Below are positions 2,696 to 55,701 of a DNA stretch of 64,000 nucleotides, one piece after another. Source of the stretch: an uncultured Weeksellaceae bacterium (lineage in GTDB: Bacteria; Bacteroidota; Bacteroidia; Flavobacteriales_D; UBA2798). The stretch lies in NCBI GenBank assembly GCA_964460845.1, contig CAYWRZ010000001.1, positions 131,533 to 195,532 of the forward strand, in the 5' to 3' direction. A program made the position numbers and the translations under genes. Positions within the stretch are counted from its first letter, which is position 1. Every line of letters starts with the position of its first letter. The notes beneath the pieces were generated by a model, which made no database searches, was not told the DNA's origin, and saw only the letters and a list, made by a program, of their open reading frames with translations.

Positions 2696-2732
2696 AAAAA
2701 GAGGCTGCTCCTTCCGGGCAGCCTCTTTTTTT
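2696..2732. terminator. Bidirectional rho-independent terminator between convergent genes
   Basis: aaaaa-GAGGCTGC-tccttccgg-GCAGCCTC-ttttttt. Perfect 8-bp GC-rich stem flanked by an A-run and a T-run. Confidence 0.85.
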
Positions 2733-2756
2733 ACAACTAATAATAGCGTAACCGAT

Positions 2757-3635
2757 TTATACCGCACTTTTCGCTTCTACTTCGGGTGCGATTTTCTTCA
2801 CTAATCCCTGCAATACTTTACCGGGTCCTGCTTCTATAAATACGCTGGCTCCGTCGGCCACCATCTGCCTGACCGATTGTGTCCATTTCACCGGCGCGGT
2901 AAGCTGTGCCACCAGATTGGTCTGAATGCGTTCCGGGTCACTCACTGCCGCAGCCGTCACGTTTTGGTACACCGGACAAAGCGGTTTTTCAAAACGGGCC
3001 GCACGAATAGCGGCTTCGAGCTCGACACGTGCGGGCTCCATCAGCGGCGAATGAAAAGCTCCCCCCACCGGCAATACCAGCGCGCGTTTGGCACCTGCCG
3101 CTTTTAAGGCTTCGCAGGCTTTGTTCACCGCCTCGACCGAACCGGAAATAACCAGTTGCCCCGGGCAATTGTAATTGGCCGGCACTACTACACCTTCTAT
3201 CCCGGCGCATATTTCTTCCACTTTCGCATCGTCGAGTCCCAGCACTGCTGCCATGGTCGAAGGGGTAGCCTCGCAGGCTTTCTGCATGGCCAGCGCTCGT
3301 TTAGAGACCAGCGTAAGTCCTTCCTGGAATGAAAGCGCACCATTAGCCACCAGCGCCGAAAATTCACCCAACGAATGACCGGCCACCATGTCGGGACGAA
3401 ACTGATCGCCCAGGGTTTTGACCAGCACCACCGAATGCAGAAAAATAGCGGGTTGGGTTACTTTGGTTTGTTTGAGTTCTTCGTCGCTACCGGTAAACAT
3501 CACATCGGTGATGCGAAAACCGAGTATCTCGTTTGCCTGTTCAAAAAGTGACTTGGCCAGCGCCGATCCTTCATAAAGATCTTTTCCCATTCCGGAAAAT
3601 TGCGAACCCTGACCGGGGAATACGTATGCGTTCAT
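2757..3635 (-). CDS. fabD: Malonyl CoA-acyl carrier protein transacylase
   Basis: ORF 2757-3749. The internal ATG at 3635 gives MNAYVFPGQGSQFSGMGKDLY, the typical FabD N-terminus. The GHSLGE active-site motif is present. Confidence 0.95.
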   Translation of the reverse strand: MNAYVFPGQGSQFSGMGKDLYEGSALAKSLFEQANEILGFRITDVMFTGSDEELKQTKVTQPAIFLHSVVLVKTLGDQFRPDMVAGHSLGEFSALVANGALSFQEGLTLVSKRALAMQKACEATPSTMAAVLGLDDAKVEEICAGIEGVVVPANYNCPGQLVISGSVEAVNKACEALKAAGAKRALVLPVGGAFHSPLMEPARVELEAAIRAARFEKPLCPVYQNVTAAAVSDPERIQTNLVAQLTAPVKWTQSVRQMVADGASVFIEAGPGKVLQGLVKKIAPEVEAKSAV

Positions 3636-3712
3636 GTATCGGATGTTTTTTGATATTCCGAATTTACACAAAAACCCACCGGAACAGCTTTTCCGGAAAA
3701 AAAATTCGGCAT

Positions 3713-3746
3713 AAAAAAACGCCCTGCCGGTAAAGACAGAGCGTTT
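3713..3746 (-). terminator. Rho-independent terminator downstream of the Bax inhibitor-1 family gene
   Basis: Minus strand reads AAACGCTCTG-loop-CAGGGCGTTT followed by TTTT. The stem is 10 bp with one G-U pair. Confidence 0.7.
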
Positions 3747-3765
3747 CAAATTCAGTTTCGTTCGC

Positions 3766-4488
3766 TTATTCGCGGTTACCCATAAAGCGCAGGATAGACA
3801 GGAAAAGGTTGATGAACAGAATGTAAAGCTTCAGTCCGCCGATGAGCGCGAGCTTGGAACGCGAAGCGCCGTCGAGCTCAGGGTCGTTAGAAATGTGCTT
3901 CAGGCGTTGCATTTCGTAAGCAGTCAATCCGGTAAATACGAACAGACCGAGGAAAGAAATGATATAGCCCATCGTATCGCTGCCGATAAAGAAGTTCACC
4001 ATGCTGGCAATAAACATTCCGATAAACACCATGTAAAGCAGGCTTCCGAATTTGGTCAGGTCGGTTTTGGTGAAGTAGCCCAGTAGTGCCATGGCACCGA
4101 ATGCACCGGCTGTAGTGAAGAAAGTAGCGACAATCGAGCCCATGCTGTACACAAGGAAAATAAAGCTAAGGCTCATGCCAAGCAGCACCGAATAGGCGAG
4201 GAACAGCAATACCAGCGCTATCATGGGTAAGCGTTGGAAACCGGCCTGAATGATCAGCACCAGCACCAGCGGAGCAAACATAATGACGTAACCCAGCGGC
4301 GACATTCCGGTTTCTGTAAACATAGAATAGATGAACGCTTCATTCTGAGAAAGCACATAAGCTACCAATCCGGTAATGGTGAGCGCGGCAAACATGTACG
4401 AATACACGTTGGCGAAAAATTCTTTGGTAGCGGTACCGGTGCTACCTTTTTGCTGTTGACGGTCAAGAATCTGATCGAACATGGACAT
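3766..4488 (-). CDS. Bax inhibitor-1/YccA family membrane protein
   Basis: 240 aa and polytopic. N-terminal FFANVYSYMFAALTITGLVAY and C-terminal LALIGGLKLYILFINLFLSIL are typical of the BI-1/YccA family. Confidence 0.85.
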   Translation of the reverse strand: MSMFDQILDRQQQKGSTGTATKEFFANVYSYMFAALTITGLVAYVLSQNEAFIYSMFTETGMSPLGYVIMFAPLVLVLIIQAGFQRLPMIALVLLFLAYSVLLGMSLSFIFLVYSMGSIVATFFTTAGAFGAMALLGYFTKTDLTKFGSLLYMVFIGMFIASMVNFFIGSDTMGYIISFLGLFVFTGLTAYEMQRLKHISNDPELDGASRSKLALIGGLKLYILFINLFLSILRFMGNRE

Positions 4489-6396: not shown

Positions 6397-7653
6397 CTAA
6401 TCCCCGTATTCGATGCCAAAGCCGGCAGCCTGTAAGTCACGCCAAAAGGAGGGATAGGATTTGCGCACTACGTTCGGATCTTCGATCGACAGGGGAATGC
6501 CTTTACACGCAAATACGGAAAATGCCATCGCCATTCGGTGATCGTGATAGGTTCGCACAGGCCGTTCAGGTATAAGCAGATCTAAAGTCGGGTAAATTTC
6601 AAGGGTATCGGGCGTAGCTACTGTTTTTACGCCAAAAAGATCCAGCTCGCGGCAAAGCGCCGCTATACGGTCGGTTTCTTTGATGCGCAGGGTCGCCAAT
6701 CCGGTCAACTGCGCCGGTATTCCGCCAGCGGCGCACACACAGGCCAGGGTTTGTGCCAAATCGGGGCAATTGGTAAAATCGAAGGTAAAATGCGAGGGAA
6801 ATAATTCCCCTTCAAGCCTGCGAAGGCAAACGCCATCGGGAGTAAACTCGGTTTCGACACCGAACGCACTGAAAATCTGCGCCACCACCGCATCGCCCTG
6901 TAAGCTGTGCCGACGAAGTCCCTGAAGCCACACCTCACTACCGGGGGCAGAAAAAGCGACCAAAGCATACCAATACGAAGCCGCGCTCCAATCGGCCTCT
7001 ACCTCAAAGGGCTGCTCAAACGAATAAGGAACGGGCTTTACCGCTATAAAAAGCGGATCGGAATCCTGTACCCCTGCGCCAAAATGCCGCATAATTTCTA
7101 CCGTCATGGCAATATAGGGCGCCGACACCGGGGGACTGGAAAACCGAATCTTCAATCCGTTTTCGAGACAAGGCGCTATCAACAGCAAAGCCGACACAAA
7201 CTGGCTGCTCACTCCGGCATCGAGTATAAGTTCGCCGCCTTTGAGCGTTCCACCCCTGATCTGAAGCGGAGGGTAACCTTCTTTTTCGAGGTAAGTAATG
7301 GAAGCGCCCATGCTACGTAAAGCCTCGACCAGTATCCCTATCGGGCGCTCTTTCATCCGGGCGCTGCCTGTTAGTATCCAATCACCTTCGTAAAAAGCCA
7401 GCAGCGCTGTCAGAAAACGAAACGAGGTTCCCGCCGCACCCACGTCGATCAAAGTCTGTGTGGCCTGAGCAGCACGGATTTGCTTCAGCGCAGCCGTCAG
7501 GGCAAGGGTATCGTCCGAATCGGAAAGGTTATGCAGCGAAAAGGCATTCCCCGAAAGGGCCTGAATGATCAAAGCCCGGTTGCTCTCGCTTTTGGAAGCC
7601 GAAAGCCGGCTGCGGTAATACAGCTTACAGGAAGAAGTAAGGGTAAGTTTCAT
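6397..7653 (-). CDS. aroA: 3-phosphoshikimate 1-carboxyvinyltransferase (EPSP synthase)
   Basis: 418 aa. Contains SKSESNRALI, GAAGTSFRFL and RIKETDRI blocks typical of AroA. Confidence 0.9.
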   Translation of the reverse strand: MKLTLTSSCKLYYRSRLSASKSESNRALIIQALSGNAFSLHNLSDSDDTLALTAALKQIRAAQATQTLIDVGAAGTSFRFLTALLAFYEGDWILTGSARMKERPIGILVEALRSMGASITYLEKEGYPPLQIRGGTLKGGELILDAGVSSQFVSALLLIAPCLENGLKIRFSSPPVSAPYIAMTVEIMRHFGAGVQDSDPLFIAVKPVPYSFEQPFEVEADWSAASYWYALVAFSAPGSEVWLQGLRRHSLQGDAVVAQIFSAFGVETEFTPDGVCLRRLEGELFPSHFTFDFTNCPDLAQTLACVCAAGGIPAQLTGLATLRIKETDRIAALCRELDLFGVKTVATPDTLEIYPTLDLLIPERPVRTYHDHRMAMAFSVFACKGIPLSIEDPNVVRKSYPSFWRDLQAAGFGIEYGD

Positions 7654-24953: not shown

Positions 24954-25354
24954 AAAAAGACATCGAAATACCCGTCGTGAAAGACGTAGCAATAGCTGTA
25001 GTGAAAGAGCAAAATGAGCTGATGCAGGACGAATGGAACGTGTACCTCATCAATTTACAGGACAAGCCTTTGCAAAATGTGCTGGTTTCTTCACGCGGCT
25101 ATGGGTCGATAAATAAAGAAGCACGTAAAACTTCCGACCTCCGCCATTTCCTCGAAGAGGTGGAAGCGCGCAGCTATCAAAAAATAGAGCCTATCATAGA
25201 AGAGGTATTCGGGCTGAACAACGAATACTGGGTCAGCTTTTACCAGGACAACCTGATGTACGATAAAAAGTTTATTTTTCTGCCCGAGACCATTTCGGCC
25301 GAAAACTTAGTGAATGTTCCGCTGCTGCATAAAAAAGGCGTAGTGATTGGCTAA
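24950..25354 (+). CDS. Hypothetical protein (134 aa)
   Basis: ATG overlaps the upstream stop (ATGA). No motif recognised. Confidence 0.6.
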   Translation: MKKDIEIPVVKDVAIAVVKEQNELMQDEWNVYLINLQDKPLQNVLVSSRGYGSINKEARKTSDLRHFLEEVEARSYQKIEPIIEEVFGLNNEYWVSFYQDNLMYDKKFIFLPETISAENLVNVPLLHKKGVVIG

Positions 25355-29925: not shown

Positions 29926-30789
29926 TTATGATCTTTTACGGGGAGCCGTGCGTGGCGCAGGCTTTTTGGCAGCAGCCGCAGGCGCTTTTTTACCTGCATC
30001 GGTACCGCGTTCTTCCTCTTCGGCAGCCAGTAGCTCCAAACGGCGGTTTTCAGCCGCATCGTCACCCTCATCCTCTTTCTTATCGGAAAGTGTTTTATCC
30101 GCTTTTCTTTCTTCAAGCCCTTCGGTAATGGCGTTTACCATTACTTCCACGATTTTAGAAATAGACTTGGAGGCATCGTCGTTGGAGGGGATAGCGAAAT
30201 CGACCGAGTTGGGATCGGAGTTGGTATCTACCATTGCAAATACCGGAATGTTAAGACGCTTGGCTTCGGCTACGGCGATGTGTTCTTTGTTGATGTCCAC
30301 CACGAAAAGCGCTGCCGGGAGGCGGGTCATTTCGGAGATGGAACCGAGGTTTTTCTCAAGCTTGGCACGTGAGCGTGAAATCTGCAGACGCTCGCGTTTC
30401 GACATGGTTTCGAGTGTTCCGTCGCTACCCATTTTGTCGATCGAGCTCATTTTGCGAACCGATTTACGAATGGTGGCGAAGTTGGTCAGCATTCCGCCGG
30501 GCCAGCGCTCGGTCACGAAAGGCATATTCACGTTTTTGAGGCGCTCGGCTACTACTTCTTTGGCCTGCTTTTTAGTGGCTACGAAGAGTACTTTTTTACC
30601 CGATTTGGCAATCTGCCGGATAGCGGCCGATGCTTCGTCAAGCTTTACGATAGTTTTGTTCAGGTCGATGATGTGGATCCCTTTTTTATCGTTGAAGATG
30701 TAGGGAGCCATGTGTGGATTCCACTTTCTTTTCAAGTGTCCGAAATGCACACCTGCGTCGAGCAGTTCTTTGAAGGTTACTTTTGACAT
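29926..30789 (-). CDS. rpsB: 30S ribosomal protein S2, with Ala/Lys/Glu-rich C-terminal extension
   Basis: Contains LLDAGVHFGHLKRKWNPHMAPYIF and ERWPGGMLTNF. Confidence 0.95.
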   Translation of the reverse strand: MSKVTFKELLDAGVHFGHLKRKWNPHMAPYIFNDKKGIHIIDLNKTIVKLDEASAAIRQIAKSGKKVLFVATKKQAKEVVAERLKNVNMPFVTERWPGGMLTNFATIRKSVRKMSSIDKMGSDGTLETMSKRERLQISRSRAKLEKNLGSISEMTRLPAALFVVDINKEHIAVAEAKRLNIPVFAMVDTNSDPNSVDFAIPSNDDASKSISKIVEVMVNAITEGLEERKADKTLSDKKEDEGDDAAENRRLELLAAEEEERGTDAGKKAPAAAAKKPAPRTAPRKRS

Positions 30790-30916
30790 GTGTTAAATTT
30801 GTCGGTTTACGTTCCTTTTTACTTATCTGTTTATAAGCAACCCGCCGGTGGTTCCGCATAATGCGAAAGCCCGGCAGATTTGGATGCTAAACAGCTTATT
30901 CGTAACAGTCTCCCGA

Positions 30917-31303
30917 TTAACGTTTGGAGAACTGGTAGCGTTTTCTTGCTTTTTTCTGACCTGGTTTCTTTCTTTCCACCATACGTGGGTCGCGGGTCAT
31001 CAGGCCACGCTCTTTGAGCGCAGGCTTGAGCGCCGGATCGAGCTTCACCAGGGCACGGGCAATACCGAGGCGAATGGCCTCAGCCTGTCCGTTTACGCCG
31101 CCACCGTCCACATTGACGGTTACATTGTATTTACCTTCGGTGCCGGTCAGGGCAAATGCCTGATTCACTTTGTACTGCAGGGTCGGCAGGGGGAAGTATT
31201 GTTTAAAATCTACCTTGTTTACCGTTACATCACCTTGTCCGTCAGACAGGTACACACGAGCTACAGAGGCTTTTCTTCTACCGATAGCGTTGATTACTTC
31301 CAT
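30917..31303 (-). CDS. rpsI: 30S ribosomal protein S9
   Basis: Contains [12 protein letters not shown] and a C-terminal [19 protein letters not shown]. Confidence 0.95.
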
Positions 31304-31308
31304 TTTTC

Positions 31309-31764
31309 TCAGAATATGTCGTTAAGATTGACAGCTTTGGGTTGTTGTGCTTCGTAAGTATGCGCCGTTCCGGCCACTACATGCAGGTTGCGGAACACGG
31401 CACGTCCGAGGCGGTTCTTGGGCAACATACCTCTTACGGCGGCTTCGATCACACGGCCGGGAAACTTACCGAGCACCTCTTCGGGGGTCGAAAAACGCTG
31501 ACCGCCGGGATAGCCCGTATAGCGCACGTATTGCTTGTCTGTAAGCTTGTTACCGGTGAATTTCACTTTTTCGGCATTGATCACAATCACATGATCCCCG
31601 CAGTCCACATGAGGGGTGAAGCTGGGTTTGTGTTTTCCACGCAGAAGCTTGGCTACCTGGCTGGTCAGGCGACCAAGAGGCTGATTTTCTGCATCTACGA
31701 TCAGCCACTGCTTTTCGACAGTTTGCTTATTGGCCGATACGGTCTTATAGCTTAGTGAGTCCAC
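31309..31764 (-). CDS. rplM: 50S ribosomal protein L13 (GTG start)
   Basis: Contains [46 protein letters not shown]. The start codon at 31764-31762 is GTG. Confidence 0.95.
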
Positions 31765-31808
31765 TGTAAAAAATTTTAAAAACGTTTATTTCCCTGAAAT
31801 TGGGGCTG

Positions 31809-31816
31809 CAAATTTA
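31809..31816 (-). promoter_or_regulatory. -7 box TAAATTTG upstream of rplM
   Basis: Plus strand reads caaattta, 44 nt upstream of the rplM GTG. Confidence 0.5.
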
Positions 31817-31869
31817 CAACTATTTTTTATTCAGCCAAATTTATCAACACAGTATTGTGAAAGCTTCGG

Positions 31870-32772
31870 TCAGGGCGTAAAACTGCCGGGGGCCAACCAG
31901 CCGTTTACTGTTCCGCTTACCCTGACCCATTCGCCACAGCAACCCGTTACGGTAAGCCGGGTACCAGCTTTTGCCCGACCCGTTACCTCAGCCTCCACAT
32001 AGGGCTTGTCATACAAATCAACCTCCTGACTTCCAGAAGAGGAAGCCACCTTTACCGAAGCAAAATGTGTTTTAATCCAGGTGGACCGATAGGCATTCTC
32101 CCTGCCATAGAGCTCACCCCCGCCATAGGGTTTTCCGTTGCCATGTACCGCTCCCAACTGAATCCAGTCTTCGTACCAGTCAAGAATTTCCAAGCGCAGA
32201 ACTTCTCCGCTTTTTGCTTCCAGCACCCGCAGCATTTCGCCCTCGGGTGCATCCCTTACGTTTGTACCAATCCGCTCCGGATCGGAAAACGAGGCCTCTA
32301 TTTTACAACCGCCACAACCCCATCCGTCTTCGAAATACTGCGGCTCCCAGCGGCGGAAAATATACACCTGATCCGAATCGATCAGGTGCAGTTCCAGTTC
32401 ATCCGCATCCAGTTTAAGTATCTCGAACAGGTAGTATTTCTCAAAGTTACCCCCCTCTTCGACACGCATAAACCGCCCGGTAGGTGAAGGCTTCGCCCCC
32501 TTGCGCGGGTATTCGTCATAAAAAGTCAGCGGGTTGCCCGAACCGCCTTTGCCTTTGTAATACTCTATCCATATATCGTTCTCAAACACAACCTTGTGAT
32601 GTCTGTCGCGCCGGTCTTCCCAGATGCCCTGAAGTTTGGACACAGTGCTTTCCTTTTTTTCTTCCGTAACCCCGGTATTATTTCCCGCAGGCTCATTTCC
32701 GCAGGAAAAAAGTCCAGTTAGCAGAAAAAAGCACATGAAAAGAAGGAAATCAAACGGCCGTTTCATACGCAT
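31870..32772 (-). CDS. Lipoprotein with two SH3b-like C-terminal modules, paralog A
   Basis: MRMKRPFDFLLFMCFFLLTGLFSC lipobox. IGTNVRDAPEGEMLRVLEAKSGEVLRLEILDWYEDWIQL and RLTVTGCCGEWVRVSGTVNGWLAPGSF resemble bacterial SH3 domains. Confidence 0.75.
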   Translation of the reverse strand: MRMKRPFDFLLFMCFFLLTGLFSCGNEPAGNNTGVTEEKKESTVSKLQGIWEDRRDRHHKVVFENDIWIEYYKGKGGSGNPLTFYDEYPRKGAKPSPTGRFMRVEEGGNFEKYYLFEILKLDADELELHLIDSDQVYIFRRWEPQYFEDGWGCGGCKIEASFSDPERIGTNVRDAPEGEMLRVLEAKSGEVLRLEILDWYEDWIQLGAVHGNGKPYGGGELYGRENAYRSTWIKTHFASVKVASSSGSQEVDLYDKPYVEAEVTGRAKAGTRLTVTGCCGEWVRVSGTVNGWLAPGSFTP

Positions 32773-32813
32773 CTTACTTAATTACAACGTTTATTGCCCT
32801 GAAATTGGGGCTG

Positions 32814-32821
32814 CAAATTTA
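32814..32821 (-). promoter_or_regulatory. Duplicated copy of the rplM-type -7 box TAAATTTG, now upstream of lipoprotein paralog A
   Basis: Sequence context is identical to 31809-31816. It lies 41 nt upstream of the ATG at 32772. Confidence 0.45.
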
Positions 32822-32873
32822 CAACTATTTTTATTCAGCCAAATTTATCAACACAGTATTGTAAAAGCTTCGG

Positions 32874-33767
32874 TCAGGGCGTAAAACTGCCGGGAGCCAA
32901 CCAACCACTTACCACCCCGCTTACCCGCACCCATTCGCCACAGCAACCCGTTACGGTAAGCCGGGTACCGGGCTTGACCCGATCCACCACCGCAGCGTCT
33001 CTGTCGGGCTCATTATACACTGCCACCTCCTGATTTCCGGAAGCCAAAACCACTTTTACCGAAGCGAAATGGGCTTTGATCCAGGTGAACCGGTACTTTT
33101 CGACTTTATCTTCTTTCTCCTTACCGATTACATTTTCCAGTTGAACCCAGTCTTCGTACCAACCGCGGATTTGTAAGGTCAACTGTTCGCCCTCTTTGGC
33201 TTCGAGCGTAAACAGCATTTCTCCGTCGGTTCCGGGCCAATCCCTCACATTGGTACCTATCCCTTCGGCATCCGAGAACAGCGCAGTGATGTCGCAGCCC
33301 CCGCAGTAACCTGAGTAGCGAGGCGAATCAGAAGCTTGCCAACGCCGAAAGAGGTATATCTGATCTGAACCGATCAGTTGTAATTCCAGCTTATCCGCCT
33401 CCAGCTTTAGTATCTCGAACACGAAATAATTACCTGGGTTTTCTCCCTCTTCAAGACGTATAAACCGTCCGCCGGACGAAGGCTTCACTCCGGGACGCGG
33501 ATATTCTGCATAAAATTCGAGCGGGTTGCGCGAAACGAGCTGCTCGTTATACTGATCTATCCATGTATTGTCTTCAAAAACAACCGTATGACTCATGTCG
33601 CGACGGTTTTCCCATTTGCCCTGAAGCTTTGCGGCGGTAGTTTCTTCTTTTTCCTTTTCGGCTGTTGTAGAAGACTGCGCAGCCGGCTCATTTCCACAAG
33701 AAAAAAGGCCTGTCAGCAGAAAAAAACACACCAAAGCAAGAACACCAAAGGGCCGTTTCGTACGCAT
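32874..33767 (-). CDS. Lipoprotein with two SH3b-like C-terminal modules, paralog B
   Basis: MRTKRPFGVLALVCFFLLTGLFSC lipobox. About 55-60 percent identical to paralog A by eye, with the same C-terminus VTGCCGEWVRVSGVVSGWLAPGSFTP. The start lies 1 nt after the kbl stop. Confidence 0.75.
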   Translation of the reverse strand: MRTKRPFGVLALVCFFLLTGLFSCGNEPAAQSSTTAEKEKEETTAAKLQGKWENRRDMSHTVVFEDNTWIDQYNEQLVSRNPLEFYAEYPRPGVKPSSGGRFIRLEEGENPGNYFVFEILKLEADKLELQLIGSDQIYLFRRWQASDSPRYSGYCGGCDITALFSDAEGIGTNVRDWPGTDGEMLFTLEAKEGEQLTLQIRGWYEDWVQLENVIGKEKEDKVEKYRFTWIKAHFASVKVVLASGNQEVAVYNEPDRDAAVVDRVKPGTRLTVTGCCGEWVRVSGVVSGWLAPGSFTP

Positions 33768-33768
33768 C

Positions 33769-34956
33769 TTACTTAATCACACCGAGCTCGCGCCCTACTT
33801 TGGTAAAGGCCGCTATGGCCCGGTCGAGGTGTTCTTTTTCGTGTCCGGCCGAGAGCTGCACGCGAATACGCGCCTGCCCTTTGGGCACTACGGGGAAGAA
33901 AAATCCGGTTACGTAAATGCCTTCTTCCAGCAGCTTGTCGGCAAAAACCTGCGAAAGCTTGGCATCGTACAGCATGATTGGTACAATGGCCGAATCGCCG
34001 TCTTTGATGTCGAATCCTGCGGTTTTAATGGCCGTTTTGAAATAGCGTATGTTCTCTTCGAGCTTATCGCGCAGATCGGTGGTTTCGCTCAGCATATCGA
34101 ATACGGCTATCGAAGCGCCGGTGATATGCGGAGCCAATGAGTTAGAAAACAGGTAGGGCCTCGAACGCTGACGCAACATTTCGATAATCTCTTTGCGCCC
34201 GGTGGTAAACCCGCCCATCGCACCGCCCAAGGCTTTGCCGAGTGTCCCGGTAATCAGATCGACACGTCCCATCACGTTGCGCAATTCGACGCTGCCACGC
34301 CCCGTTTTTCCAATGAAACCGGTGGCATGACTCTCGTCAACCATTACGAGCGCATCGTATTTATCGGCCAAATCACAGATTTTATCCAACGGCGCCACAA
34401 ATCCGTCCATTGAAAAGACCCCATCGGTCACTATCAGCCTGAAGCGTTGTGCCTGTGCTTTTTTGAGCTGCTCTTCGAGATCGGCCATATCACAGTTCTT
34501 GTAGCGGTAACGCTGTGCTTTACAAAGCCTTACCCCGTCTATGATGGAAGCGTGGTTCAGCTCGTCCGAAATGATGGCATCCTGTTCGCCGAGCAGGGGC
34601 TCAAAAACACCGCCGTTGGCATCGAAGCAGGCCGCATAGAGAATGGTATCTTCGGTGCCGAGAAAAGCGGCTATTTTCTGTTCAAGTTCTTTGTGAATAT
34701 CCTGCGTACCGCAGATAAAACGTACGGAAGAAACGCCGTATCCCCGACTGTCGAGCGAACGGTGGGCGGCTTCAATCACCCGCGGGTGAGAAGAAAGACC
34801 GAGGTAATTGTTGGCACAAAAAATAAGCACTTCTTTGCCGTTTACCGTAACGGCAGCACCTTGTGGCGAGGTGATCACACGTTCGCGCTTAAAAAGTCCC
34901 GACTCTTCTATCTGTTGCAGCTCCTGCTGCAGGTGTTCCTGAAATTTTCCGTACAT
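33769..34956 (-). CDS. kbl: Glycine C-acetyltransferase (2-amino-3-ketobutyrate CoA ligase)
   Basis: Collinear with E. coli Kbl as recalled: FCANNYLGL, SVRFICGTQDIHKELE, DELNHASIIDGVRLCKA, TLGKALGG, GIYVTGFFFPVVPKGQARIRVQ. Confidence 0.9.
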   Translation of the reverse strand: MYGKFQEHLQQELQQIEESGLFKRERVITSPQGAAVTVNGKEVLIFCANNYLGLSSHPRVIEAAHRSLDSRGYGVSSVRFICGTQDIHKELEQKIAAFLGTEDTILYAACFDANGGVFEPLLGEQDAIISDELNHASIIDGVRLCKAQRYRYKNCDMADLEEQLKKAQAQRFRLIVTDGVFSMDGFVAPLDKICDLADKYDALVMVDESHATGFIGKTGRGSVELRNVMGRVDLITGTLGKALGGAMGGFTTGRKEIIEMLRQRSRPYLFSNSLAPHITGASIAVFDMLSETTDLRDKLEENIRYFKTAIKTAGFDIKDGDSAIVPIMLYDAKLSQVFADKLLEEGIYVTGFFFPVVPKGQARIRVQLSAGHEKEHLDRAIAAFTKVGRELGVIK

Positions 34957-35043: not shown

Positions 35044-36066
35044 TTACTGCGCTTTTACCAGCTCTTCGAGGGTTTTTATCCAAAGCGGGCTGTCGTTGAG
35101 GCTTTCGACTAATTGCAAATGCGTACCGCCGTGCGCTTCGAACAGATCTTTGTATTCGTAGCCGATTTCTACGGTAGTTTCGAGGCAATCGGCCACAAAA
35201 GCGGGCGAAAAAACGAGCAGGCGTTTTACACCTTTGGCAGCCAGCTCTTCGATTACTTTATCGGAATAAGGCTGAATCCAGGGATCGCGCCCCAACCTCG
35301 ACTGGAAAGCAACGGTATAACGTTCGGTGGGAATGCCCAGCTCGGCCGCCAAAAGGCGTGTCGTAGCATAACATTCAGCCTTATAGCAATAGCGGTTTTC
35401 TTCATTGATTTCGTGACGGCAGGGGTGTGCTTCGCAGGGTTTACCGTCGCGGTGCGCCTTATCGACCTGACGCTCGGGCAAGCCGTGGTAGCTGAAAAGA
35501 ATATGGTCGAACGAATCGGGGTTATGGATCTTTGCTTTTTCGGCAAATGCCCGGATATAGCCGGGGTTATCGAAATAAGGCCCTACTATGCTGATTTCGG
35601 GGATCACCCACCAGCGACGGATAATCCGCATGGCTTTTTCGAGCGCTGATCCGGTGCTGGAAGAGGCGTATTGGGGGAAAAGAGGAAGAAGGATGATTTT
35701 ATGATAACCGGCTTTCTGCATACGTCCCAGCACTTCGTCGAGCGAGGGATTCTGGTAGCGCATGGCCAGTTCAACGGTATAATTTTCGGGCAGCGCCTGT
35801 TGCAGCAATTGCTGCACTTTACGACCGTATATCAGCAATGGCGAGCCTTCGGGTGTCCAAAGCATCCTGTAAATTTTCGCCGACTTAGGCGCACGAAAGG
35901 GCACGATAATGCCATTCACCAGCAGCATTCGCGCCAGCGGCGCAATGTCAATTACACGCGGGTCGTTGAGAAACTCAGACAGGTAACGCCGTACGTCTTT
36001 TACCGAAGGACTGTCGGGCGTGCCCAGGTTAATGAGCAATACTCCTGTTTTTACTGGCTGACCCAC
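35044..36066 (-). CDS. hemH: Ferrochelatase
   Basis: Contains GVLLINLGTPDSPS, LPLFPQYASSSTGS and FSYHGLPE. Confidence 0.9.
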   Translation of the reverse strand: MGQPVKTGVLLINLGTPDSPSVKDVRRYLSEFLNDPRVIDIAPLARMLLVNGIIVPFRAPKSAKIYRMLWTPEGSPLLIYGRKVQQLLQQALPENYTVELAMRYQNPSLDEVLGRMQKAGYHKIILLPLFPQYASSSTGSALEKAMRIIRRWWVIPEISIVGPYFDNPGYIRAFAEKAKIHNPDSFDHILFSYHGLPERQVDKAHRDGKPCEAHPCRHEINEENRYCYKAECYATTRLLAAELGIPTERYTVAFQSRLGRDPWIQPYSDKVIEELAAKGVKRLLVFSPAFVADCLETTVEIGYEYKDLFEAHGGTHLQLVESLNDSPLWIKTLEELVKAQ

Positions 36067-54906: not shown

Positions 54907-55701
54907 TCAGGGTTTGGAAAGCGTTTTTAACGACAACTTTATTTTTTCGCCGACTTCGCGGGCAAGCGGCATAAGTCCTTCGTTTTTAAGCACCGACAAA
55001 TCGGAAATACGCGAAGAAATAGAGTGTATAGCCGCACCTCCTGTGCGGATATTGCCCTGACTATCGAGGCAGGTATAGTGCAATTTGAGCCTGAACCGCG
55101 AGGGGTCATCGGGCGCATAGAGAATATCGAGCTGGTTCAGGAACACGAAATACGCCACATTTCGGAAAGACAGCTCCTCAGTCAGATTCGCATTCAACAG
55201 CACGGTAGCCATGTATTGCTCGCGGGAATCGCCTTCGGCGACAAGCTGCCCCTGTTGTATGCCCGAACTTTTTCCGGGCGGCGTCTCTTTTTTGTCGGGC
55301 GAATTTCTGCGCGAGAAAAGCCGTGTTTCTTTCGGATCTCCCTGCAAGGCTTCTCCCTCTTCGAGCAGAAGATATTCGTATTCGATCGAAGAATATACGT
55401 AGTGCAGCTCACGACGAAGGCTGTCGTTGCGCGGGTAGAGCGTATAAGCATCGGTCTCGTCGTCGAGCTCGAAGGCCAATGCTTCGACAAGGCTTTCCCT
55501 TACTTTTTCGACAATTTCGGAAAAGGAGACATGTTCATGCGCTGCCACCTGCCTGTCGATCTGCGACATATACATACGCGACTCAAAAGGAATAACCAGT
55601 AAGCGCGGACGTGCAGACAAAGCCGTATCCGGTTCGGTCAGTGTTTGACCCGCACCTGCAAAAGTGAACAGGCAAAAGCAGAAAAAGAATACATAACGCA
55701 T
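54907..55701 (-). CDS. Hypothetical secreted protein (264 aa)
   Basis: Signal peptide MRYVFFFCFCLFTFAGAGQ. No motif recognised. Confidence 0.6.
   Translation of the reverse strand: MRYVFFFCFCLFTFAGAGQTLTEPDTALSARPRLLVIPFESRMYMSQIDRQVAAHEHVSFSEIVEKVRESLVEALAFELDDETDAYTLYPRNDSLRRELHYVYSSIEYEYLLLEEGEALQGDPKETRLFSRRNSPDKKETPPGKSSGIQQGQLVAEGDSREQYMATVLLNANLTEELSFRNVAYFVFLNQLDILYAPDDPSRFRLKLHYTCLDSQGNIRTGGAAIHSISSRISDLSVLKNEGLMPLAREVGEKIKLSLKTLSKP

Follow-up and report, generated by a model that had tools for sequence, protein, structure and literature searches.

A tandem lipoprotein gene duplication that copied the predicted rplM promoter, with probable later homogenisation by gene conversion, in an uncultured Weeksellaceae bacterium

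In the 64,000-nucleotide (nt) stretch of contig CAYWRZ010000001.1 from an uncultured Weeksellaceae bacterium that was analysed here (hereafter the window), two copies of a lipoprotein gene lie head to tail on the minus strand between kbl, encoding glycine C-acetyltransferase (33769-34956), and rplM, encoding ribosomal protein L13 (31309-31764). We consider it likely that the pair goes back to an old duplication in which one copy captured the promoter of rplM, and that the 3' ends of the two copies were later homogenised by gene conversion.

The duplicated unit extends from the final ~15 nt of kbl, which form its upstream limit, to 17 nt short of the rplM start. Repeat finding and an end-to-end pairwise alignment place the two units at 31781-32785 (1005 nt) and 32786-33784 (999 nt), with 70% identity overall and a start-to-start spacing of 992-1005 nt among the families of direct repeats. 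The unit next to rplM holds paralog A (31870-32772, minus strand, 300 amino acids [aa]), with a putative signal peptide, a lipocalin-like N-domain and two SH3b-like domains, and the unit next to kbl holds paralog B (32874-33767, minus strand, 297 aa), an open reading frame with an SH3_3 domain; the two proteins are 61% identical (E 4e-127). Each unit also carries a spacer. Copy 1 (31765-31869, minus strand, duplicated part 31781-31869) comprises the original rplM promoter and 5' untranslated region, and copy 2 (32786-32873, minus strand), identified by repeats, alignment and motif, is the duplicate of the rplM promoter region upstream of paralog A. Across 31781-31869 and 32786-32873 the spacers agree at 84 of 87 positions, the differences being two substitutions and a 1-nt deletion. 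The initial annotation had described two units of about 1 kb, each with a lipoprotein gene of about 300 aa, and spacers with about three differences in 90 nt, and the alignment bears out both descriptions as well as the homology of the spacers. No further copy of the spacer was found elsewhere in the 64-kb window, and a dispersed repeat or mobile element was ruled out on that ground.

Directly upstream of the paralog A ATG, at 32773-32789 on the minus strand, the sequence cttacttaattacaacg links the end of the spacer (AATAAACG) to a remnant of the kbl tail and thereby forms a novel junction. This remnant, already recognised in the initial annotation, matches the kbl stop region at 33768-33784 (cttacttaatcacaccg) at 15 of 17 positions. 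The letters CG or ACG are common to both parental sequences at the junction, and later substitutions blur the exact breakpoint. With what appears to be a metagenome-type source, and with short-read contigs that break at these repeats, one might suspect an assembly artefact in which two strain alleles of one gene were joined in tandem. We give this almost no credence, because the junction unites a kbl-tail copy that has two substitutions of its own with a spacer copy that has three private changes, which is not something that an assembler can invent, and two alleles would have made a bubble and not a tandem. The Logan short-read assemblies SRR16798010, SRR16797976 and SRR16797981 match the window over 3-8.5 kb at 100% identity. 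The contigs from these assemblies end at 31821 and 32940, the latter (contig L084) within the second copy of the 3' block described below, and these two positions are the final 31-mers that are still unique ahead of the exact runs (31792-31827 and 32929-32969) that the copies share. Since an assembly graph with k=31 must branch there if the blocks occur twice, contig breaks at 31821 and 32940 fit two copies. The duplication is thus confirmed as real.

Informative relatives were drawn from an L13 homologue search, a DNA-motif scan and the matches of an exhaustive protein search. In L085, L087, L088 and L089, kbl is followed by a single small gene (135-162 aa) and then by rplM-rpsI; L086 has the same order plus two inserted genes, and L090 has a single 259-aa gene in the same place. 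L091 and L092 keep the kbl-lipoprotein pair although rplM lies elsewhere. Homology links the small genes with the N-domain of both paralogs (E 1e-13 to 1e-25), and the L090 and L091 proteins align with the paralogs over their full length, including a C-terminal CC...GW motif. With one gene between kbl and rplM at each of the loci L085-L090, the ancestral order kbl, lipoprotein, rplM that had been reconstructed for the window proves correct. The single-copy gene overlaps the kbl stop in L085 and L090 and is separated from it by 10 nt in L087, by ~30 nt in L091 and L092 and by a much longer gap in L086 (the kbl-stop junctions lie at 33765-33771 in the window, 4435-4441 in L085, 2836-2842 in L090 and 3971-4001 in L091). 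The paralog B ATG is 1 nt past the kbl stop, as in the single-copy arrangement of the relatives; judged by gene order, paralog B retains the ancestral, kbl-coupled position and paralog A is the copy that sits behind the promoter duplicate. As to the insertion in L086, two unannotated genes on the opposite strand occupy 2700-4270 between the small lipoprotein gene and rplM, and the conserved promoter element remained with rplM despite them.

Sampling of this lineage is very sparse. A search of 5.8 billion clustered proteins gave, as its sole full-length matches to the lipoprotein, the two copies themselves, and the closest L13 listed by the protein-database search is 79% identical, that of the motif-scan locus L088 80%. 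Scanning species-representative genomes for kbl yielded 80 loci with almost no synteny; the lipoprotein is absent from all of them, and L067 alone has kbl beside rplM. In this Flavobacteriales locus kbl is directly upstream of rplM-rpsI-rpsB, and the GC-rich 184-nt spacer (7189-7371) has neither a lipoprotein gene nor similarity to the rplM element; the adjacency there is probably independent.

The promoter consensus of Bacteroidota consists of TTTG at -33 and TAnnTTTG at -7, with G at -5 (PMC6847099, PMC9723704). Both spacers have these boxes on the minus strand. In copy 1, ahead of rplM, TTTG (31836-31839) and the -7 box TAAATTTG (31809-31816) are 19 nt apart, and in copy 2, ahead of paralog A, TTTG (32840-32843) and TAAATTTG (32814-32821) are 18 nt apart. 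By the G(-5) convention of PMC6847099, transcription is predicted to start near 31804 for rplM and near 32809 for paralog A. The presence of the same -7 box in both spacers upholds the proposal of the initial annotation that paralog A lies behind a copy of the rplM promoter. The combination TTTG-N18/19-TAAATTTG occurs four times in 64 kb, two of these being the spacers. TAnnTTTG as such is not over-represented in the window (47 matches, 43 expected), and 21 of the 47 fall within the intergenic 10%, a ~4.5-fold intergenic enrichment, mostly 17-71 nt upstream of gene starts; this placement means that the motif carries positional information in this genome. On the plus strand, the promoter-like pattern TTTG-N21-TAAATTTG at 30769-30801, one of four such matches, overlaps the rpsB start and points antisense into the rpsI-rpsB spacer.

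In L085, L086, L087, L089 and L090 the sequence ahead of rplM is conserved, with 39 invariant columns. The conserved parts are CACA..TGTTGA, TTTGG, the fixed 19-nt spacing, GTTGTAAATTTG, the initial transcribed sequence CAGCCCCAATTTCnGGGAA and the GTG start. GTTGTAAATTTGCAGCCCCA and the upstream TTTGG are kept in L085, L087 and L089, and the -7 box reads TATTTTTG in L086 and GCGACCCCA in L090; the boxes are conserved though L13 itself is just 77-80% identical in these genomes. By motif and conservation, then, the copied spacer is a genuine, clade-conserved rplM promoter (TTTG-N19-TAAATTTG with a conserved initial transcribed sequence). Copy 1 has the ancestral letter at 39 of 39 invariant columns and copy 2 at 37 of 39, its two departures being C>T at 32859, within the upstream CACA box, and A>C at 32796, within GGGAAA; besides these it has the 1-nt deletion, in the run at about 32828-32832, that cuts the -33/-7 spacing from 19 to 18. 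All three are thus derived in the copy next to the paralog A gene (lipoA). They fit a relaxed or retuned constraint, a pattern that is suggestive and, with three differences only, not significant.

A structured leader or riboswitch was ruled out, since the leader has no Rfam match even at E<=1, no stable fold (z-scores 0.15 and -0.16) and no covariation, the consensus fold of five genomes reaching -3 kcal/mol in Alifold with 0 compensatory pairs. Neither spacer contains an intrinsic terminator, and read-through from kbl and paralog B is therefore also expected. The rplM start is GTG in the window (31762-31764) and in all six relatives L085-L090, in the context A-GTG-GAC (GAT in L090), and this conserved non-ATG start beside a conserved leader hints at translational control. 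One might go further and see in the ~100-nt rplM element a so far undescribed module, specific to the clade, that regulates the L13-S9 operon and is made up of CACA..TGTTGA, TTTG-N19-TAAATTTG, the invariant initial transcribed sequence GCAGCCCCAATTTCnGGGAA and the conserved GTG, with recurrent conversion keeping both modules in step. This we offer as a speculative and rather unlikely proposal. If true, growth-rate control might act through the module, or L13 might regulate its own operon through a largely unstructured leader, and the duplication would have wired an envelope lipoprotein into ribosomal-protein regulation.

The two units have diverged very unevenly. In the gene body (codons 30-265) the proportion of synonymous differences (pS) is 0.64, the synonymous divergence (dS) 1.46 and the nonsynonymous divergence (dN) 0.31, and the resulting dN/dS of ~0.2 and the other body values indicate that the duplication is old and that purifying selection has acted on both copies. 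In comparison with L090, kbl, rplM and rpsI have saturated pS values of 0.81-0.88 and the whole-gene pS between A and B is 0.585; since the latter is lower, the duplication postdates the split from L090 and is nonetheless old. In the last 35 codons dS falls to 0.35-0.47, and the longest exact run, 41 nt of coding sequence, is located here (31925-31965 and 32929-32969). The block 31781-31890, which comprises the 88-nt spacer, the stop codon and the final 18 coding nt, has 3 differences in 110 columns, compared with 30% overall, and none of 20,000 permutations of the differences produced a 110-column window with so few. Spacer divergence is ~0.03 per site against the body dS of 1.46. The whole 3' block spans 185 nt in copy 1 (31781-31965) and is 93% identical to its partner in copy 2 (32786-32969). 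Old gene bodies combined with a near-identical 3' block require a later homogenisation over the 3' 110-185 nt. The single illegitimate-recombination event to which the initial annotation had attributed the whole arrangement is therefore insufficient, the body being near synonymous saturation and the spacers still the same at nearly all of the freely varying columns considered next. Intragenomic gene conversion, extending as far as the duplication boundary, where homology ends, appears to be the most economical explanation of this divergence pattern.

Strong purifying selection on both promoters might instead have held the spacer and the 3' end after a single old duplication, and the rplM element is indeed strongly conserved across genera, as its 39 invariant columns attest. 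However, of the 48 spacer columns that differ among L085, L086, L087, L089 and L090, the two copies match at 47, including the segment right after the stop codon, which is fully diverged in L090, and identity between copy 1 and any one relative is 66-78% over that spacer stretch. Such agreement at columns that vary freely means that promoter selection cannot explain the near-identity. The 41-nt coding run, moreover, is synonymously identical outside the element conserved in relatives, in a region that cannot be aligned with L090 at the nucleotide level, and we regard selection by itself as a very improbable cause. A single recent duplication whose gene bodies then diverged fast under diversifying selection has in its favour that the family evolves fast at the protein level; with the body pS near saturation and a dN/dS that speaks for purifying and not positive selection, we find it barely credible.

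Another possibility is a recent duplication of the whole unit, after which one central body was replaced by a diverged orthologue from a sister lineage. In agreement with this, identity is higher at the two ends of the unit (83% in the 5' block and 93-97% in the 3' block) than in the body (60-75%), and the lipoprotein evolves fast enough (33% identity to L090, kbl 88%) that diverged alleles should exist. Yet no donor-like sequence was found among 5.8 billion or 1.84 billion database proteins, both bodies are native in GC content and codon usage, and the copies have in common lineage-specific features that are absent from L090 and L091. Allelic replacement also needs two events and an external donor, whereas intragenomic conversion needs no donor, and we judge it unlikely. 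A foreign origin of one copy was likewise rejected, as both have native GC content and codon usage and thus give no compositional signal.

The history that we favour, an old duplication with promoter capture followed by 3' gene conversion, starts from an ancestor with a single lipoprotein gene (lipocalin-like N-domain plus SH3b), its start abutting the kbl stop and the rplM promoter directly downstream. Illegitimate recombination, as the sequence shows, then duplicated ~1 kb head to tail, the unit holding the whole lipoprotein gene, the -33/-7 promoter and approximately the first 25 nt of the rplM transcript, so that paralog A gained the kbl-tail remnant as a putative translation-initiation region and, ~40 nt ahead of its ATG, a full duplicate of the rplM promoter. 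Both genes stayed intact under purifying selection while diverging to their present 61% protein identity. Much later, to go by the divergence pattern, a non-reciprocal recombination would have homogenised the 3' 110-185 nt, a tract that takes in the coding 3' end, the stop codon and the spacer with its promoter. In the last step the promoter next to lipoA took three changes at clade-invariant positions, consistent with a relaxed or retuned constraint there. On sequence grounds, paralog A would today be expected to have two sources of transcript, read-through from kbl and paralog B and initiation at its own ribosomal-type promoter copy.

We would like to note several points that weigh against this history. 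Between the near-identical stretches of the 3' block there are 9 differences within ~25 nt (31891-31924 and 32895-32928), a patchiness for which two conversion tracts or patchy mismatch repair could be needed, and conversion may have run in either direction and more than once. The 5' end is also closer than the body, with the kbl remnant at 15 of 17 and a signal-peptide pS of 0.48, for which the history does not readily account. No other genome carrying both paralogs was found in the databases searched, which puts the classic phylogenetic proof of concerted evolution out of reach. The Logan runs possibly come from the same samples as the genome and are then independent assemblies, not necessarily independent populations. 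Finally, the promoter activity of either copy is something that we infer from motif and conservation.

As for the product of the duplicated gene, Pfam SH3_3 (PF08239) is matched by both paralogs with 29.5 and 36.6 bits against a cut-off of 27. The N-terminus, read by eye as MR.KRPF..L..CFFLLTGLFS-C-GNEP, has a lipobox-like LFSC with an atypical F at -2, and Cys24 is almost invariant in a 58-sequence family alignment. An AlphaFold model from this alignment has a mean predicted confidence (pLDDT) of 84.8, above 90 in the N-domain, compared with 37 when the two paralogs alone were the input. In Foldseek the all-beta N-domain matches 4qrl of Bacteroides uniformis weakly (E 9e-3, template modelling score [TM] 0.59) and compares with E. 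coli Blc at TM 0.40-0.44, and the C-terminal half resembles, again weakly (E ~1e-2), the tandem SH3b wall-binding modules of NlpC/P60 enzymes and endolysins. The N-domain belongs to no family in Pfam or NCBIfam, and NCBIfam offers no meaningful match to the protein as a whole. It may reasonably be guessed that the product is a lipoprotein facing the periplasm or on the surface, which combines a small ligand-binding barrel with wall- or glycan-binding domains. The lipoprotein (31870-33767) is 33% identical to its L090 counterpart (2839-3618), as against 88% for kbl and 79% for L13, and at the same locus the relatives alternate between short (N-domain only) and long (N-domain plus SH3b) forms. 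The pairing of kbl with the lipoprotein, even where rplM is not adjacent, suggests a functional link between threonine/glycine metabolism and the lipoprotein.

The flanking genes are all on the minus strand. Upstream of kbl (395 aa; Pfam Aminotran_1_2 and NCBIfam TIGR01822, the latter with 697 bits against a cut-off of 493) lies hemH (35044-36066). The GTG-initiated rplM (Pfam Ribosomal_L13) opens the cluster rplM-rpsI-rpsB-tsf-pyrH-frr, in which rpsI (30917-31303) is followed by rpsB and tsf. There are no transfer RNA genes and no Rfam matches at the gathering threshold in the 64 kb, and tandem repeats are limited to two short ones (24956-25008 and 55360-55401).

The locus offers a clean and fully reconstructable case of bacterial regulatory rewiring, with a defined junction, a single-copy outgroup and a conserved promoter that was copied. 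On the favoured history, it means that an essential ribosomal-protein promoter can be the gene-conversion partner of its own duplicate. Its two copies make up a natural pair of promoter variants, which differ in their 19- and 18-nt spacing and in two substitutions at conserved positions, and the analysis defines a conserved rplM upstream element and a kbl-coupled family of lipocalin-like/SH3b lipoproteins in an almost unsampled clade of Bacteroidota. The processes involved (tandem duplication, promoter capture and gene conversion) are known ones, and this is a new and well-resolved instance of them that leaves current understanding unchallenged.

Gene conversion between bacterial paralogs is exemplified by tufA and tufB of Salmonella. 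The present locus resembles known cases of duplication with promoter capture and concerted evolution in its head-to-tail units, in a novel junction with short or no homology, in the placement of one copy behind a different promoter and in the mosaic of old and, as we read it, recently homogenised segments. It differs in that the putative conversion is limited to the 3' 110-185 nt, the remainder of the genes having diverged, and in that the tract covers the essential rplM promoter, so that promoter and copy would exchange sequence. Going by structural matches that are weak (E ~1e-2), the encoded lipoprotein may be like the Bacteroides lipocalin-like lipoprotein 4qrl in its small beta-barrel N-domain (TM 0.59) and like the tandem SH3b modules of 6biq, 4krt and 6ilu in its two SH3b-like domains, and unlike NlpC/P60 enzymes and endolysins it is without a catalytic domain. 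Ribosomal-protein leader RNAs, such as the L13_leader that Rfam describes in Firmicutes, are similar in that a conserved non-coding element stands directly upstream of rplM, and dissimilar in view of the missing Rfam match at E<=1, stable fold and covarying pairs among the five genomes. In layout the rplM element agrees with the sigma-A promoters of Bacteroidota (PMC6847099, PMC9723704), from the exact TAAATTTG -7 box with TTTG 19 nt upstream to the position ~45 nt from the start codon and the A/T-rich leader without a Shine-Dalgarno sequence; in contrast to these, conservation in the rplM element extends to CACA...TGTTGA and GCAGCCCCAATTTCnGGGAA, beyond what a generic promoter needs.

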